DNA of 47,808 nucleotides, from NCBI GenBank assembly GCA_018064745.1, contig JAGHUR010000004.1, forward strand, positions 1 to 47,808, written 5' to 3'. The position numbers and the translations under genes were made by a program. Shown piece by piece: positions 30,815 through 47,717 of this stretch. The notes under the pieces are model-generated. The model was not told the DNA's origin. It searched no databases and was given only the letters and a program-made list of their open reading frames with translations. Within the stretch, counting starts at the first letter, position 1, and every line of letters starts with the position of its first letter. This stretch comes from Candidatus Fiminaster equi. Its GTDB lineage: Bacteria > Bacillota_I > Bacilli_A > RFN20 > CAG-826.

Positions 30815-33800
30815 TCAGGGCGAGTAATGATATTCATTAACTTCAAGGTTATGACCTTCACCATCGTCCAGCTTCACATTATTAACGTAAACACTGTAAT
30901 TATCAATTTCATAATTAAATATGTTAATTGTTATTGCAGCACTTGCAGAGAATGTAATGTAGTAAATACTATCATTCTTATTAAAATACACTTTAATTGA
31001 GTAATTTAATTCTGCCGGTGCATCAAAATAGAAGTTAAGAATTGTATCTGTGATTGTATCATTAGCATCTCTATAGCCAACTGGACCGAAAGAACCGCCA
31101 GAACCTTCATGGGCTTTATATGAGAACTTAACATCAGTAATGTATGTTCCGTTAGTTGAAGATCTTGAGGATGAACCTAAAACAATAACATAGGTAGCAA
31201 TGTTGCTAACTCTGTCTTTATTAAGTACATAGGAACCACTTGGATCCTTTTCATATGTACCATATGGATTTTGATCATATTGAGTTGTTCCTGGATTATA
31301 AGTAACGTGTCTATATCTTTCTTCTGCTGGCTCAGTTGTTGCAGCTTTAAAGAAACCATAACCTGGGTTACCGTTTAAATCATAAATACCAAGCATTCTG
31401 CCTTGTCTATCTAAGCATACATAGGATGTTTTTCTTGCACCACTTTCGGTGATATCACCATCAAATGTAGAGACAAAGTTAACATATTGTTCGCCTTCTT
31501 CGATTCTACCTAAAGTTTCAACGTTAACAAAGTTACCATTGCCTTTCTTGAAGGATGGACGAGTAACATTAATTAAGGTTCTACCTTGAATATTCATGTT
31601 AGCGTATGTAAACTCAACGTGGCCAAGTTGACTATCAATATTATCAAGACCGTTACCAGAGTTATTGACATACATAACAATTGAACCTGGGCAGTACTTA
31701 GTTGCATAGAATTGACTCATTGCGTCAAGGTCAGACATTTCTGGAAGTTCAACAATGTTTGTATTTTGAGTTTCAGGTGGAAGCGTGATAACTTCAAGGT
31801 TTACTGGTATGAATAAAATTGTACCAAGATAATAGAAGGTAACATTACCACCAACAATATCGATATTCTTAAACTTATAATTATTATCAATCAACGATTG
31901 AGCATCAGAAAGGTATACTGGATCTTTAGAATAGTCAGGAGATCTTGTTGGATTATCGGCTGCTATCCAAACTTTCCTTGAGACTTCATGAGGATTGCCT
32001 TGATCATCATATTCAATATCAGTCACTGTTTCTCTAGTAAAACTTTCAATTGATGATTCTTTTAACAATGCAGTTGAACCATCAGAACGTTTTGTGCCAG
32101 TTAAAGTTATTTCATAGGAATTTGGGTTAACGTATTGTGGTACTTTTCCATCCCATTTATTTGAATCGATCTCAATAGTTGGACTTTGATCAGCAACCGT
32201 ACAGTTTCCACCATCATATTTTGCACCAGCAAAAGACATTGTTCCTCTAATATAATCATCAACATCAAATACAAACGTACCTTGTCTAACAGTCCAGTTT
32301 TTTCTATTTGCTCCACTCATAGTCACTGATGTACCGGAACTTGTTTGATTACTACCATCAATGCCTTTTGTTTTAGCATTATCTGCAATATAGGCAAATC
32401 TCATAGCATTGTTCTTTGTAGCAAAAGCTAAGAAGAAGGCATAATAATGGGTTCCACGTTGTAATTTATGAGTAAATGATGTTTTAGTTAAAGAAATGTT
32501 ATACAGCCTATATTTGTAGTTAAATACCGATCCGGTACGTTGAATGCTATTATTAACAGGTTCATCATAAACTTTTACGCCATCAATATAGAAATATGCT
32601 CTGGCACTATACATAGAAGGGCTACTATCACCGCCAGATTCGCCGACAGAGAATTCGCTAATAGTGCTTAAATTAAATGTAATATCTTTTTCAGCAACAT
32701 AGCTTGTACTATCGTTTTCAGAATGTTGATAATACCATTGTTGTCCACTTGAATCATATCTAAAGAAATCACCAGTAGCAGATTGATTTGCTAAAGCAGG
32801 TGCATTTTTATTTGTTGTTACATTATCAGGATTACTCCATCTTGAATCAGTTGAAGATACTTCGAATTCACTACGAATACCACCAGTTAATGGTTGATAA
32901 CCAACAGTTGAAAGCGAATAGGTTCTATCAGCATATTCTTGTGTGGTTGTACCATTTAAACGATATGTGTTGCCATTGACACGTGTAATAGCCTCACTAA
33001 CTGGATGTGATGCCTCATTGTTTGCCCAATCTGGTTCACCTTCAATTGGGAAATCATAATCGGTATAATGTCTTCCCATATCATCAGAATCTAGACCAAC
33101 ACGAGCTCTTAATGGGTTATCACGAACATTTGCATAGTCTTCATTAATAGCGTCATAAATTTTTTTAGCACTTAAATCAAATGAATAGTTATCACCAGCA
33201 TGTCTTTGACCACCCGTATGGTCGTATTCAACCTTACCATAGTAGCCATATGTATCCACTGTTCTATCTTTTGCGGTTTTACCATCAATAGTACAGTTAT
33301 TAACGTAAACGTTATTTATATCGGTAGCACGAACAACGTGGCCCGCAATATAGCCAACGTGTGCATTTTCAGAGTGAACTCTAGTTTCTGGTGATCCGTG
33401 CGCATCAGTAGCGGTTGCACCTTTAGTGTTAACTTTAAAATCACTAAAGTAGGCATTATCAATCTTTGCGCCTACGCCTTCACTAGTTTCACCAACGAAA
33501 CCAAAAATACCAATATCGTGATGTCCACTACCATCGATTTCAAAATTTGTGATAGTTAAATTATTACCATTTAAGTTTCCAATGAAAGGTTTTTCTTCGT
33601 TGCCAATTGGTTCAAAGACATCACCACCAAGGTTTAATGTAGTAGCGTTTGTAACATCAAAATCAACAGCACCATTTTCATCAGTGCCATAAAAATATCT
33701 AGTTGTGCCACCATTTAAAGGATAACCAAATTCAAAATAGTATCCAGCTTCAGCAAAACCATCCATAGAATAGTGAAGCTTTGCAAAGTTTTCATAGTGC

Positions 33801-34003
33801 CATGGAGTGGTAATTGTAAATGGGTCTGCTTGTGTACCAGTTCCAGAATGGAAATAACCACGTAAAACGGCACCACCTAGGATATCAACAACACCAATTG
33901 AGTTTCTACCACCGAACCAAGCAACGGTTGCTAAAGATAAACCTGATACAAGAAGACCAAGAGTAGAAGCAAATAATACGATTTTCTTCTTACTTATTTT
34001 CAT
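30815..34003 (-). CDS. 1062-aa secreted adhesin-like protein with SipW/TasA-type N-terminal signal and probable beta-helix start
   Basis: The N-terminus is MKISKKKIVLFASTLGLLVSGLSLATVAWFGGRNSIG. It is followed by GTGTQADPFTITTPWHYENF, the usual opening of right-handed beta-helix adhesins. Its ATG overlaps the upstream stop (ATGA). Confidence 0.8.
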   Translation of the reverse strand: MKISKKKIVLFASTLGLLVSGLSLATVAWFGGRNSIGVVDILGGAVLRGYFHSGTGTQADPFTITTPWHYENFAKLHYSMDGFAEAGYYFEFGYPLNGGTTRYFYGTDENGAVDFDVTNATTLNLGGDVFEPIGNEEKPFIGNLNGNNLTITNFEIDGSGHHDIGIFGFVGETSEGVGAKIDNAYFSDFKVNTKGATATDAHGSPETRVHSENAHVGYIAGHVVRATDINNVYVNNCTIDGKTAKDRTVDTYGYYGKVEYDHTGGQRHAGDNYSFDLSAKKIYDAINEDYANVRDNPLRARVGLDSDDMGRHYTDYDFPIEGEPDWANNEASHPVSEAITRVNGNTYRLNGTTTQEYADRTYSLSTVGYQPLTGGIRSEFEVSSTDSRWSNPDNVTTNKNAPALANQSATGDFFRYDSSGQQWYYQHSENDSTSYVAEKDITFNLSTISEFSVGESGGDSSPSMYSARAYFYIDGVKVYDEPVNNSIQRTGSVFNYKYRLYNISLTKTSFTHKLQRGTHYYAFFLAFATKNNAMRFAYIADNAKTKGIDGSNQTSSGTSVTMSGANRKNWTVRQGTFVFDVDDYIRGTMSFAGAKYDGGNCTVADQSPTIEIDSNKWDGKVPQYVNPNSYEITLTGTKRSDGSTALLKESSIESFTRETVTDIEYDDQGNPHEVSRKVWIAADNPTRSPDYSKDPVYLSDAQSLIDNNYKFKNIDIVGGNVTFYYLGTILFIPVNLEVITLPPETQNTNIVELPEMSDLDAMSQFYATKYCPGSIVMYVNNSGNGLDNIDSQLGHVEFTYANMNIQGRTLINVTRPSFKKGNGNFVNVETLGRIEEGEQYVNFVSTFDGDITESGARKTSYVCLDRQGRMLGIYDLNGNPGYGFFKAATTEPAEERYRHVTYNPGTTQYDQNPYGTYEKDPSGSYVLNKDRVSNIATYVIVLGSSSRSSTNGTYITDVKFSYKAHEGSGGSFGPVGYRDANDTITDTILNFYFDAPAELNYSIKVYFNKNDSIYYITFSASAAITINIFNYEIDNYSVYVNNVKLDDGEGHNLEVNEYHYSP

Positions 34004-34899
34004 TCTACAATACCCTCAGATGAAACAGTAATCTTTTGAATATCCTTTTGGAAGGCAATTCTACTAGACATCATTCCAATATCTTGTGCACCAACAATTT
34101 CGGTGTTATTTAAGAAAGAATCAACTAAATCGGTGTTATAGTTATATTCAACGTATAAGACAACACTACTTGCTCTAGAATCTACTTGTTCTAGGTCAAA
34201 TTGTAATTTATTGTTCTTTGAACCACTTGAAACAAATGTTGCTTCTGATGTTCTTTCAATGAACTCATTAGTAGCATCTCTATATGTAGTAGCTGGAGTT
34301 GATTCATCAATTACAATTGAATCGTCATAAAGATGTGTTACGCCATCCAAAACATATGAATAAACGAAACCTTTAAAATAAATAATGTTTGAAATATTGT
34401 TACAAATATAATTTTGATCTTTTGAAGCATTGTGATACTTGTAACCTTGTTCATCAATAAAAGTTCTTGAAACACTGTCAGTGAATCCACCATAAAAGTT
34501 ATCTCCAATAGTTGTTGGATTCAATAAAGAAGAGACTCTAAGATTTCTTAAACCTTCAGAAGTTGAAGGGTGTGGTAAAGCAACATTAAAACGAATAATA
34601 TTGTTGTTATTAACGTTTCTTTCACGAATAAAGTTATCGAAGTCATTTAATTGAAGATTGAATTCTGTAGTGCCTTCAACAAATTCAACGCCTTCCTTCT
34701 TATCGAAGTCATATTTATAAAGCTTAAAGTTAATATCAATTAAGTTTGTATCAACTTCAACTCTCATATCCATTCCTGTTGCTGTTGTTTTTTTATTTGC
34801 TGAGAACCATGCAAAAGAAGATACGGCTAAACCAATCAGAGTCGAGAAGAATCCGATTGAGATAACTGTTGATACAATTTTTGCTTTAAGTGATTTCAT
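34000..34899 (-). CDS. 299-aa protein with SipW-cognate (TasA/camelysin-type) signal peptide
   Basis: The N-terminus is MKSLKAKIVSTVISIGFFSTLIGLAVSSFAWFSANKKTTATGMDMRV. The AWFSANK.TTATGM block is shared with the 255-aa protein at 45129-45896. Confidence 0.78.
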   Translation of the reverse strand: MKSLKAKIVSTVISIGFFSTLIGLAVSSFAWFSANKKTTATGMDMRVEVDTNLIDINFKLYKYDFDKKEGVEFVEGTTEFNLQLNDFDNFIRERNVNNNNIIRFNVALPHPSTSEGLRNLRVSSLLNPTTIGDNFYGGFTDSVSRTFIDEQGYKYHNASKDQNYICNNISNIIYFKGFVYSYVLDGVTHLYDDSIVIDESTPATTYRDATNEFIERTSEATFVSSGSKNNKLQFDLEQVDSRASSVVLYVEYNYNTDLVDSFLNNTEIVGAQDIGMMSSRIAFQKDIQKITVSSEGIVE

Positions 34900-34910
34900 G
34901 ATAATAAATT

Positions 34911-47554: not shown

Positions 47555-47598
47555 AAAAAATCAGTTGCGAGGTCGGTTTCCCTAACCTATTGCAACTG
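47555..47598 (-). terminator. Expression-platform terminator of riboswitch 3
   Basis: RNA is CAGUUGC-AAU-AGGUUAGGGAAACCGACCU-C-GCAACUG followed by AUUUUUU. The 5' arm CAGUUGC is the conserved 3' end of the aptamer. Confidence 0.72.
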
Positions 47599-47654
47599 GC
47601 TGGCCATTTAGGCCCCTATAGCTTTGCGCCATACCCTTCCGGGTATTTTGCTAA
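47592..47654 (-). promoter_or_regulatory. GEMM-I (c-di-GMP-I) riboswitch aptamer, copy 3
   Basis: Minus-strand RNA is UUAGCAAAAUACCCGGAAGGGUAUGGCGCAAAGCUAUAGGGGCCUAAAUGGCCAGCCAGUUGC. The first hairpin has a GGAA tetraloop, followed by the GCGCAAAGC core and AGCCAGUUGC. Confidence 0.85.
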
Positions 47655-47689
47655 TATTCGCGCAACATTGTCGCGCTACTTCTGCCTTT

Positions 47690-47717
47690 ATTATATAAAT
47701 ACCTATAATTTTGTCAA
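47690..47717 (-). promoter_or_regulatory. Sigma-A-like promoter driving riboswitch 3
   Basis: -35 TTGACA (47712-47717), 16-nt spacer, -10 TATAAT (47690-47695). Confidence 0.6.

Follow-up and report, generated by a model that had tools for sequence, protein, structure and literature searches.

A candidate c-di-GMP-induced surface-fibre locus with a McrBC-like module in Candidatus Fiminaster equi

Background

The closest described systems combine McrB GTPases carrying transmembrane (TM) and coiled-coil segments with McrC homologues and signal peptidases, and were named CoCoPALM by Bell et al. (eLife 2024, PMC11090510). CoCoPALM occurs mainly in Bacillota, and the three sentences given to it propose pilus assembly, with no gene-by-gene description (PMC11090510). 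That paper makes no mention of c-di-GMP, riboswitches, a dead EAL protein or a phosphodiesterase (PDE), nor of beta-sandwich subunits, McrC-SipW fusions or a ~160-aa repeat domain. No follow-up study of CoCoPALM was found in our literature search.

Here we describe a 17-kb cluster (30815-47717) from Candidatus Fiminaster equi (GCA_018064745.1, contig JAGHUR010000004.1, positions 1 to 47,808 of the forward strand). This whole stretch of 47,808 nucleotides is the window, and all positions refer to it. The cluster consists of three co-oriented minus-strand units, each led by an RF01051 aptamer (Table 1). We consider it moderately probable that the locus is a c-di-GMP-induced surface-fibre or adhesin biogenesis system of the CoCoPALM family, with a McrBC-derived GTPase module as an integral membrane component. 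The original prediction, made from the DNA alone, is partly supported. It recognised no described system of this kind; the association of McrBC with signal peptidases had already been named (PMC11090510), but the c-di-GMP, EAL, riboswitch and subunit parts are absent from that account.

Results and Discussion

Table 1. Features of the locus, listed in the direction of transcription (arrows in signal motifs mark the cleavage position)
Feature	Position	Strand	Basis or content
Unit 3	47.7 to 45.1 kb	-	EALdeg, TM253, Sec255
Unit 3 promoter, TTGACA-16-TATAAT	47690..47717	-	12/12 consensus; 28 nt upstream of aptamer 3
c-di-GMP-I aptamer 3	47588..47662	-	RF01051, 50.4 bits, E 5e-7, full-length
Unit 3 expression platform, intrinsic terminator	47553..47598	-	5' arm CAGUUGC = aptamer 3' strand
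EALdeg, 260-aa stand-alone degenerate EAL protein	46731..47513	-	Pfam EAL 60 bits, EAL only
TM253, membrane-anchored paralogue of secreted subunit	45973..46734	-	TM at residues 26-44
Sec255, secreted beta-sandwich subunit (predicted)	45129..45896	-	signal motif TSTYA↓WFSANK; AF2 pLDDT 86
Unit 3 terminator, bidirectional hairpin and T-run	45067..45097	-	hairpin at 45075-45097; 10-bp stem, 5 GC pairs, TTTTTTGTT tail
Unit 2	45.0 to 35.1 kb	-	SipWa, AAA513, 1417-aa McrC-like, SipWb, 764-aa GGDEF-EAL
Unit 2 promoter, TTGACT-17-TG-TATACT	44963..44991	-	10/12, extended -10 TG
c-di-GMP-I aptamer 2	44866..44940	-	RF01051, 56.5 bits
SipWa, 272-aa archaeal/ER-type signal peptidase I	43982..44800	-	TIGR02228, 53.9 bits
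AAA513, McrB-family NTPase	42409..43950	-	family profile vs PDB; PADLOC
1417-aa McrC-like protein	38120..42373	-	DUF2357, 31.1 bits (cutoff 23.3)
Five ~160-aa repeats of McrC-like protein	40721-41203, 40214-40696, 39677-40159, 39119-39601, 38537-39019	-	
SipWb, 210-aa archaeal/ER-type signal peptidase I	37475..38107	-	TIGR02228, 69.6 bits
764-aa membrane GGDEF-EAL protein	35159..37453	-	Pfam EAL 189.6 bits; weak GGDEF
Unit 2 terminator	~35140..35177	-	10-bp stem AAAGGACCAC/GUGGUCCUUU, then UUUCU, z -3.6
Unit 1	35.0 to 30.8 kb	-	Sec299, Adh1062
Unit 1 promoter, TTTGCA-18-TATTAT	35006..35035	-	9/12, weaker
c-di-GMP-I aptamer 1	34928..35002	-	RF01051, 59.1 bits, E 3.9e-9
Unit 1 expression platform, terminator	34905..34941	-	5' arm AGCCAGCUGC = aptamer 3' strand
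Sec299, second exported protein	34000..34899	-	shared signal and N-terminal segment SSFA↓WFSANKKTTATGM
Adh1062, 1062-aa exported protein	30815..34003	-	ORF, signal ATVAWFGG
Unit 1 terminator	~30746..30786	-	hairpin and U-run, z -4.8

Organization and conservation

All ten ORFs lie where the original prediction had placed them. Gene spacing is also as described there, from 4-nt overlaps (the start of TM253 with the stop of EALdeg, and the start of Adh1062 with the stop of Sec299) up to 76 nt. The core order EALdeg-TM253-(subunits)-SipWa-AAA-DUF2357-SipWb is repeated in 84 related loci. Among loci with sequence available, SipWa is directly upstream of the NTPase gene in 71/71 and the DUF2357 gene directly downstream in 74/74; SipWb is the next gene after DUF2357 in 59/68, and TM253 and EALdeg are found upstream in 57/59 and 50/59, respectively. 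With these 84 loci, and the NTPase present in at least 580 species genomes, the co-conservation that had been proposed as a test is strongly evident. Cultured carriers include Ruminococcus sp. FC2018 and Eubacterium ruminantium FB3002. The subunit part of the conserved core consists of one or more secreted paralogues with a highly conserved SipW-type signal. The unit 1 cassette (Sec299 and Adh1062) is accessory, being present in only 3-4 related loci, and homologues of Adh1062 are paired with Sec299 in loci L005, L007 and L010. Unit 1 lies outside the conserved core.

The McrBC-like pair and the signal peptidases

A membrane McrB-family NTPase had been proposed, and the data agree. McrB was the sole PDB match of the AAA513 family profile (6hz4, E 1.6e-4), in which the Walker A/B motifs and the GTANNDD signature align with McrB; the GTPase signature NNDD is compatible with NxD or NxxD. 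A TM segment is predicted near the N-terminus (56-74), together with a short coiled coil. The AAA_5/McrB domain models gave only sub-threshold matches to AAA513. Its partner is the nuclease-less McrC-like repeat protein that had been expected, with a DUF2357 core (about aa 1-390), five repeats and an acidic tail. No nuclease domain was found with Pfam, and no conserved D/ExK in the homologue alignment of the core, which in some homologues (~370 aa) stands alone. The ~160-aa repeat domain also occurs in giant Flg_new/beta-helix surface proteins, where it comes after their membrane-spanning segments. FtsB homology was not detected by Pfam at this locus.

The pair resembles E. coli McrBC in the AAA+ GTPase fold, the Walker A/B motifs and N..D signature of AAA513 and the DUF2357 partner, a domain that in McrC enters the McrB ring and boosts GTP hydrolysis (PMC11090510). 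It differs in lacking the DNA-binding N-domain and the PD-(D/E)xK nuclease, in being membrane-anchored and in sitting within a secretion/fibre operon. With CoCoPALM it shares a McrB-like GTPase with N-terminal TM and coiled coil, adjoining signal-peptidase genes and a McrC homologue, which in CoCoPALM often has no nuclease.

Both SipW-type peptidases of the original prediction pass TIGR02228 (cutoff 51.85). Their catalytic Ser and His are kept and are invariant among homologues, in 78/78 for SipWa, which has TM helices at its N- and C-termini, and in 64/64 for SipWb. Furthermore, six independent genomes of the Ruminococcus type encode the McrC-like core and SipWb as a single ORF (E 1e-78 to 1e-85 for the SipWb domain), and these fusions provide a physical link between the modules at the sequence level.

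PADLOC candidate-defence models match both AAA513 (PDC-M26A, 1.3e-34) and the McrC-like protein (PDC-S18, 3e-23), McrB is the only PDB relative of AAA513, and CoCoNuTs are relatives of the family branch (PMC11090510). These findings would suit a self-standing defence module, of the type IV restriction or CoCoNuT kind, located inside a fibre operon by chance. We regard this as very improbable, given that the pair keeps its place between two signal peptidases wherever sequence is available (71/71 and 74/74), is fused to SipWb in the six genomes, has a membrane anchor and no nuclease domain or motif, and is under riboswitch control. The NTPase is also unusually well conserved (homologues are 52-96% identical), while defence genes are usually more variable. 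A membrane component of a surface-fibre system is the reading that we follow below.

Regulation

The claimed GEMM-I leaders are present. A cmscan against Rfam gave three full-length minus-strand RF01051 aptamers at about 50-59 bits (gathering score 35), each with a promoter just upstream. The description of these promoters as near-consensus sigma-A sites is generous for unit 1 because its match is only 9/12. Each of the three units is closed by a hairpin and U-run, as had been stated; the terminators of units 1 and 2 are overlooked by a simple scan because of their loop length.

In the unit 3 platform, the MFE fold places a CAGUUGC...GCAACUG hairpin directly ahead of AUUUUUUAU. Across the family, a terminator that starts inside AGCCAGUUGC follows about 30 of the 40 aptamers. 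Since the aptamer's 3' strand doubles as the terminator's 5' arm, both in units 1 and 3 and in these family members, the liganded aptamer and the terminator would be mutually exclusive, and from this overlap we infer ON-type switches for units 1 and 3. In unit 2 the fold has no recognisable terminator downstream of the aptamer, and a hairpin partly covers the SD. This unclear platform would agree with riboswitches that are no longer functional or are OFF-type, a kind represented among characterised class-I c-di-GMP switches by, for instance, C. difficile flgB. The locus would then be expressed when c-di-GMP is low, perhaps as a structure of the dispersal or motility phase. We find this improbable in view of the exclusion described above and of scores well above the gathering threshold for all three aptamers. 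Induction by c-di-GMP is therefore retained as the preferred reading. Riboswitches are absent altogether from the Ruminococcus-type branch, so control at the RNA level is clade-specific.

In Firmicutes, c-di-GMP riboswitches turn on adhesins and pili, such as C. difficile pilA1, CD2831 and CD3246 and B. thuringiensis Bc2-cap. The locus is alike in that second-messenger riboswitches would turn on candidate surface adhesion genes. However, each of those riboswitches acts on a single gene or on type IV pili, while here three class-I switches serve one multi-operon machine that encodes a candidate c-di-GMP receptor and a PDE.

Motif analysis agrees with the predicted presence of one degenerate and one active-looking EAL protein. 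The EALdeg family has lost the catalytic motifs N, DDFG, K and Q in the alignment, which makes EALdeg a catalytically dead protein and a candidate c-di-GMP receptor. The 764-aa protein has two TM helices around an outside domain of ~270 aa, then a degenerate GGDEF and an intact EAL domain with all motifs kept (EAL, N, ExxE, DDFG, K, EGVE, QG).

Exported proteins

Sec255, a beta-sandwich in its AF2 model, is the candidate major fibre subunit. The Foldseek top match of this model, and sole significant PDB match, was the archaeal bundling pilin AbpA, a TasA homologue (7ueg, E 2.6e-4, probability 0.96), with a TM-score of only 0.23-0.30 and 10% identity. AbpA (PDB 7ueg; PMC9245690) has a similar jelly-roll/beta-sandwich and an N-terminal segment available as donor strand. 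No dedicated peptidase is encoded in the Abp operon, whose single predicted GTPase is not conserved (PMC9245690). TM253 is homologous to the Sec255 family (hhalign 97.4% probability, E 1e-11). Its cytoplasmic N-tail is basic and conserved (LRRTAxEVKxYR) and is followed by a single TM helix and an ectodomain rich in beta structure. Sec299 matches the Sec255 family over the N-terminal 34 columns only (hhalign 95.9%). Adh1062, with no family match in Pfam or NCBIfam, is a candidate adhesin.

The secreted subunits have no Pfam match of any kind. No TasA/camelysin sequence homology was found for the subunits in Pfam, NCBIfam or PDB, and profile comparison with TasA gave nothing outside the signal peptide. 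The subunit signal (T/G)x(Y/W)A↓(W/A)F is in register with TWA↓AFND of TasA. A SipW-class signal had been claimed, and Sec255 does match TIGR04088, but at 16.3 bits it misses the cutoff of 19; E<=0.1 was obtained in 10/51 family members. The TasA-like label is weakly supported: the signal motif and a modelled beta-sandwich resembling AbpA favour it, but a sequence match to TasA is lacking. As in tapA-sipW-tasA of Bacillus subtilis and sipW-bsaA of Clostridium perfringens, an ER/archaeal-type signal peptidase gene lies beside exported beta-rich proteins. The locus differs from those operons in having two peptidases instead of one, subunits without detectable TasA sequence homology, and an NTPase pair, EAL receptor and riboswitches that are absent there.

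Subunits unrelated in sequence to TasA would also fit a pathway for export or processing of large adhesins or matrix proteins with no polymerising fibre, an alternative that we consider possible, though rather unlikely. The small beta-sandwich proteins would then be wall-spanning scaffolds, chaperones or non-filamentous matrix, and the NTPase would regulate peptidase activity, like LapD/LapG-type control of adhesin retention. In Pseudomonas, LapD, LapG and LapA provide inside-out control of an adhesin by c-di-GMP, and the locus parallels this logic with a catalytically dead EAL domain as candidate c-di-GMP receptor at the membrane, extracytoplasmic proteases and a large candidate adhesin. The occurrence of the McrC-like repeat domain in giant surface proteins points the same way. 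The Lap likeness is one of analogy, not homology: the proteins are unrelated, LapG and the HAMP/GGDEF of LapD are missing from the locus, its carriers are Gram-positive or wall-less, and EALdeg is soluble and linked to a membrane protein by gene coupling only. Against export without a fibre, conservation of the subunit is far higher in its signal and N-terminal segment than in the remaining sequence, related loci carry several paralogous subunits, the closest structural match is a donor-strand pilin, and a membrane-anchored paralogue (TM253) exists; taken together, they fit a set of major, minor and anchor pilins.

Proposed mechanism

As a surface-fibre system, the locus may work as follows. 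High c-di-GMP would stabilise the aptamers and block the terminators, turning transcription on. Exported subunits would be cut by SipWa/SipWb at TYA↓WF and polymerise on TM253 via donor-strand exchange, as TasA and AbpA do, with the unit 1 proteins as accessory subunit and tip adhesin. The dead EALdeg, translationally coupled to TM253, would sense c-di-GMP at the protein level. A McrB-like hexamer with its McrC-like activator would dock onto the peptidases and, as a switch or motor driven by GTP, gate or power the processing and assembly steps. The role assigned to the McrBC-like pair is a conjecture, because TasA-type fibres require no NTPase. McrBC-linked pilus assembly was proposed independently by Bell et al. 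(PMC11090510). Finally, the membrane GGDEF-EAL phosphodiesterase, encoded by the last gene of unit 2, would lower c-di-GMP as negative feedback. The cluster that may act in this way is kept across hundreds of gut and rumen Firmicutes.

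Organization of the locus

Ten tightly spaced ORFs, arranged in three units, fill the locus (Table), in a window with a G+C content of 33.9%. The original prediction placed a GEMM-I leader at the head of each unit, and cmscan with the covariance model RF01051 (gathering threshold 35 bits) gave three full-length c-di-GMP-I aptamers at these positions. A sigma-70-like promoter lies 5' of each aptamer, with 9/12 matches in unit 1, 10/12 and an extended -10 in unit 2, and 12/12 in unit 3. Strong AAAGGAG sites are present at the operon-leading genes other than that of Sec299, an exported protein of unit 1. 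No Shine-Dalgarno sequence is recognisable at the Sec299 start codon, which is found only about 6 nt past the U-run of the riboswitch terminator.

Features of the window and of related loci in other genomes (L numbers)
Feature	Sequence	Position	Strand	Remarks
ORFs of units 1 to 3	window	30815-47513	minus	ten ORFs, gaps -4 to 76 nt
c-di-GMP-I aptamer, unit 3	window	47588-47662	minus	RF01051, 50.4 bits, model positions 1-87 of 87
Unit 3 genes	window		minus	260-aa EAL-only protein (EALdeg), single-TM TM253 (253 aa), exported Sec255 (255 aa)
Unit 3 terminator	window	45075-45097		hairpin and U-run
c-di-GMP-I aptamer, unit 2	window	44866-44940	minus	RF01051, 56.5 bits, model positions 1-87 of 87
Unit 2 genes	window		minus	signal peptidases SipWa and SipWb, between them 513-aa AAA+ protein (NTPase) and 1417-aa DUF2357 protein (McrC-like); 764-aa GGDEF-EAL protein
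Repeats of about 160 aa	window	38537-41203	minus	in the McrC-like protein
Unit 2 terminator	window	about 35140-35177		hairpin and U-run
c-di-GMP-I aptamer, unit 1	window	34928-35002	minus	RF01051, 59.1 bits, model positions 1-87 of 87
Sec299 start codon region	window	34899-34915	minus
Unit 1 genes	window		minus	exported Sec299 (299 aa), exported Adh1062 (1062 aa)
Unit 1 terminator	window	about 30746-30786		hairpin and U-run
Phd/YefM antitoxin and PIN-domain toxin	window	30081-30781		directly 3' of unit 1
Phd/YefM-PIN promoter-like site	window	30769-30741
tRNA gene pairs	window	2711-2878; 29844-29998
Fic-domain protein; AAA_14/DUF4143 ATPase	window	1528-2637; 28415-29647
Surface-protein region	window	2965-24972
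282-aa lipoprotein paralogues	window	7875-8723; 8751-9599		tandem
110-aa ORF and 1662-aa Big_2 protein	window	9723-15040		4-nt overlap
BspA-type LRR_5 lipoproteins	window	18577-21273; 22225-24972		Cys/His-rich N-termini
IS605-family OrfB/TnpB gene	window	25136-26311		domains OrfB_IS605, Cas12f1-like TNB, HTH
Tandem aptamers before EALdeg	L006	5141-5241; 5270-5370
Tandem aptamers before EALdeg	L017	5408-5507; 5523-5621
GGDEF/response-regulator/HD protein	L005	16208-18250		just after the GGDEF-EAL gene
Single-TM protein, about 153 aa	L051	14458-14910		directly after SipWb
McrC-SipWb fusion ORFs	L049; L050; L061	7353-10307; 2827-5748; 9828-12824		about 980-1015 aa
McrC-SipWb fusion ORFs	L073; L076; L083	8133-11111; 11787-14765; 11660-14707		about 980-1015 aa

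Riboswitches and c-di-GMP proteins

In units 1 and 3 the 3' strand of the aptamer is also the 5' arm of a terminator, so that the ligand-stabilised aptamer and the terminator exclude each other. This overlap suggests an ON-switch architecture in both units, where the aptamers would respond to c-di-GMP. Behind the unit 2 aptamer there is no terminator, and a hairpin covers part of its Shine-Dalgarno sequence. A family covariance model built from five aptamers detected 36 further ones in the related loci. The same aptamer-terminator overlap recurs there, the terminator hairpin beginning inside AGCCAGUUGC in about 30 of 40 family aptamers. EALdeg, the EAL-only protein, is preceded by an aptamer in 27 of the 50 loci with upstream sequence, and second copies were found 5' of SipWa (L008 and L011) and 5' of Sec299 (L005, L007 and L010). 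Two loci carry tandem aptamers before the same EALdeg gene; those of L017 have one terminator each, and in L006 a single terminator was detected, which follows the second aptamer. No riboswitch was found in seven Ruminococcus-type loci.

Two proteins of the locus have EAL domains in different states. The 764-aa protein has two TM helices, a degenerate GGDEF domain and an EAL domain which, in the EAL-domain alignment, retains the EAL, N, ExxE, DDFG, K, EGVE and QG motifs. Since all catalytic motifs are kept, it is a plausible phosphodiesterase and might exert feedback on the system. In the same alignment, EALdeg and all its homologues have lost four of these motifs (N, DDFG, K and Q). By its motifs EALdeg is thus a catalytically dead EAL domain, of the kind used elsewhere as a c-di-GMP receptor, as established for LapD and FimX, and may itself sense c-di-GMP. 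In L005 the GGDEF-EAL gene of the cluster is closely followed by one for a GGDEF/response-regulator/HD protein. Homologues of this protein lie about 3.5 kb or less from the cluster in 20 loci, on either side and on either strand, and this neighbour likely adds a partner that makes or degrades c-di-GMP.

Conservation of the gene set and gene fusions

A scan with one genome per species found the NTPase in at least 580 species genomes. Among the carriers are Ruminococcus (R. flavefaciens and a cultured strain, FC2018), Eubacterium ruminantium FB3002, Lachnospiraceae, Oscillospiraceae, Christensenellales-like Clostridia and MAGs of 'Bacilli'/Acholeplasmatales. The nearest carrier among the matches listed is a 'Bacilli bacterium' MAG (77% identity). 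Over 84 non-redundant loci, the gene set proved to be co-conserved as had been proposed. SipWa is directly 5' of the NTPase gene in 71/71 loci, the DUF2357 gene is directly 3' of it in 74/74, and SipWb comes next after DUF2357 in 59/68. Upstream are TM253 (57/59) and EALdeg (50/59), and a GGDEF-EAL gene was found downstream in 38 loci. Paralogues of Sec255 vary from 0 to 4 per locus. The Sec299 and Adh1062 pair of unit 1 is restricted to three loci (L005, L007 and L010), and L009 has an Adh-like gene by itself.

In six of the nine loci that lack a separate SipWb, the McrC-like protein carries the peptidase as a C-terminal fusion; its core spans residues about 6-400, and SipWb takes up residues about 755-1000 (domain E 1e-78 to 1e-85). 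All six genomes are of the Ruminococcus type, a R. flavefaciens MAG among them. As read from these ORFs, the fusion is a Rosetta-stone link between the predicted NTPase and peptidase modules. That the McrBC-like pair belongs to a defence island was also considered and was rejected on the evidence of synteny and fusions. Ruminococcus-type clusters (L049-L086) are without riboswitch and GGDEF-EAL gene; a conserved single-TM protein of about 153 aa is encoded directly after SipWb (27 loci), and several more proteins with AWF/AYAWF signals lie downstream.

The McrB-like NTPase and its McrC-like partner

The assignment of the 513-aa protein to a membrane-bound McrB-type AAA+ family was upheld. McrB (6hz4, E 1.6e-4) was the only PDB match of a 20-homologue profile, and the motifs GISGTGKT, LDEMN and GTANNDD align with GPPGVGKT, IDEIN and GLMNTAD of McrB. 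The Walker A, Walker B (DExN) and signature residues are invariant across the family. The signature N-N-D-D aligns without gaps to NTAD of McrB, and NxD plus a further D is another possible reading. Pfam AAA_5 was sub-threshold (17.7 against 22), and the PADLOC McrB-like candidate model PDC-M26A matched at 1.3e-34. Near the N-terminus a strongly hydrophobic helix (residues 56-74) is followed by RKYIRFRR, from which the NTPase domain should be cytoplasmic and membrane-tethered. A short a/d heptad pattern was seen by inspection at about residues 94-118. More than 8000 relatives are present in databases, and the best 120 of these are 62-96% identical and all annotated as hypothetical.

Bell et al. 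(eLife 2024, PMC11090510) reported a large clade of CoCoNuT-like McrBC systems in which the GTPase carries an FtsB-like TM segment plus coiled coil and occurs in genomes together with genes of the signal peptidase family, named it CoCoPALM and deferred the detail to a future paper. The NTPase module of the window fits this description, judging from its sequence: it is associated with signal peptidase genes, and in six loci SipWb is fused to the McrC-like protein. The NTPase has an N-terminal TM helix, and its NNDD motif may be taken either as the shortened NxD GTPase signature of CoCoPALM or as NxxD. No FtsB/DivIC domain was matched by Pfam in the NTPase, even at E<=10, the methods of the CoCoPALM authors being more sensitive. 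The literature search returned CoCoPALM as the only description of such a system and no later paper on it, and the text and searched supplements of Bell et al. have no mention of c-di-GMP or EAL (PMC11090510). The claim that the system is undescribed therefore stands in part. The association of McrBC with peptidases was already named, while the c-di-GMP layer (riboswitches, dead-EAL receptor and phosphodiesterase), the subunit set, the McrC-SipW fusions and the shared repeat domain appear to be new.

The McrC-like protein contains PF09823 (DUF2357; 31.1 bits against a cutoff of 23.3), which is precomputed in homologues too. It had been described as nuclease-less, and this was borne out: there was no match to a PD-(D/E)xK nuclease family, no invariant acidic/Lys motif follows the DUF2357 region, and the conserved core lacks invariant D/ExK-like positions. 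Some complete homologues have a length of only 369-430 aa. A profile of the core retrieved nothing relevant from PDB. Behind the core, the window protein carries five repeats of about 160 aa (46-85% mutual identity) and an acidic tail; across the cluster family, 1-4 copies flank the core on either side.

The five-repeat profile matched 3191 representative proteins, and only 36 of the best 150 have the DUF2357 core. Among the rest of these 150, many are giant surface proteins that contain Flg_new or beta-helix repeats, reaching 4721 aa (examples are P0261, P0264, P0273, P0274, P0288 and P0389), in the order signal peptide, long ectodomain, 1-2 TM segments and 2-3 C-terminal repeat copies. The topology of these tails is ambiguous because one-TM and two-TM versions both exist. 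The repeat had no Pfam or PDB relative, and an AF2 model of one copy, with the five window copies as alignment, reached pLDDT 41. Speculatively, the shared domain may form a link between the McrC-like protein and the tails of adhesins.

Signal peptidases and exported subunits

SipWa (272 aa, 53.9 bits) and SipWb (210 aa, 69.6 bits) both exceed the curated cutoff (51.85) of TIGR02228, the archaeal-type signal peptidase I, which agrees with their prediction as SipW-type enzymes. The catalytic residues, Ser of the SM motif and His of the THR motif, are invariant in 78/78 SipWa and 64/64 SipWb homologues, and TM helices are predicted at both termini of each protein. They scored 55-64 bits against the cutoff of 190 for the Bacillus SipW equivalog NF046067.

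The exported proteins Sec255, Sec299 and Adh1062 have the same type of n-h-c signal, with (S/T)x(Y/F/V)A-WF at its end. Cleavage is predicted at TYA↓WF, which would give Sec255 homologues a mature N-terminus of WFS/WFT. Overall identity in the Sec255 family is about 25%, with strong conservation of the first ~50 residues (KKLIPA..MLLVSA..LGTSTYAWFSMN..V.A.GM.V.A) and of a C-terminal W.EG.D..C motif. TIGR04088 (SipW-dependent signal) was the only recurrent NCBIfam match in this family, in 10/51 members at E<=0.1 and always sub-threshold (Sec255: 16.3 bits, E 0.008, cutoff 19). In hhalign the signal motif is in register with the TasA cleavage site TWA↓AFND, which agrees with the mature chain of 8AUR.

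The name 'TasA-like' in the original prediction was not substantiated, as the similarity to TasA ends at the signal peptide: hhalign of the subunit families against TasA aligned only this segment (probability 5% and 1.5%). There was no Pfam or NCBIfam match for the mature domain, and profiles against PDB gave nothing for the Sec255 family and chance-level matches for the TM253 family. The AF2 model of Sec255 (51 homologues, pLDDT 86) is a beta-sandwich with ~44 disordered N-terminal residues. Its sole PDB match by Foldseek at E<=0.001 was AbpA (7ueg; E 2.6e-4, probability 0.96, TM 0.23-0.30), and TasA was outside the top 50. AbpA, an archaeal bundling pilin, is reported to be a TasA homologue which polymerises by donor-strand exchange (PMC9245690). 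TM253 matches the Sec255 family (hhalign 97.4%, E 1e-11) and has a conserved basic cytoplasmic tail; this profile similarity identifies it as a membrane-anchored paralogue of Sec255, on which subunits might polymerise by donor-strand exchange.

Other features of the window

The surface-protein region is flanked by two tRNA gene pairs, a Fic-domain protein and an AAA_14/DUF4143 ATPase. It includes a protein of 1547 aa, which has nine Flg_new repeats and is anchored by a C-terminal TM segment, and two LRR_5 lipoproteins around a 315-aa membrane protein. The 1662-aa Big_2 surface protein has no signal peptide of its own, and the overlapping 110-aa ORF consists of a signal peptide and ~80 residues; together they may represent one adhesin gene that is split or frameshifted. 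The promoter-like site of the toxin-antitoxin pair overlaps the unit 1 terminator hairpin.

A possible surface filament system

The observation behind the original prediction was confirmed and its interpretation was largely right, apart from the TasA comparison and the novelty of the association. It is possible, and we propose it tentatively, that the McrB/McrC GTPase pair has been exapted as a membrane motor or gate of an unrecognised class of Gram-positive surface filaments. SipWa and SipWb would process subunits whose N-terminal segment is pilin-like and highly conserved, and this peptidase pair would be physically coupled to the McrC-like protein, to which it is fused in some species. At the peptidases, the McrBC-like pair could act as a GTP-driven gate or motor, and the ~160-aa repeat may link it to adhesins. 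Control by c-di-GMP would occur at two levels, in RNA through up to three ON riboswitches and in protein through a dead-EAL receptor that is coupled to the anchor subunit in the membrane.

Among gut and rumen Clostridia and wall-less 'Bacilli', at least 580 species-level genomes have the cluster, those of cultured Ruminococcus and Eubacterium strains included, and none of its core proteins has a functional name. If this reading is true, Gram-positive bacteria would have a new way of building surface fibres, and a McrBC-type GTPase would for the first time be assigned a function outside defence. The cluster would tie c-di-GMP signalling to adhesion in abundant, poorly studied commensals, and its riboswitches, McrC-peptidase fusions and cultured carriers make it testable now.
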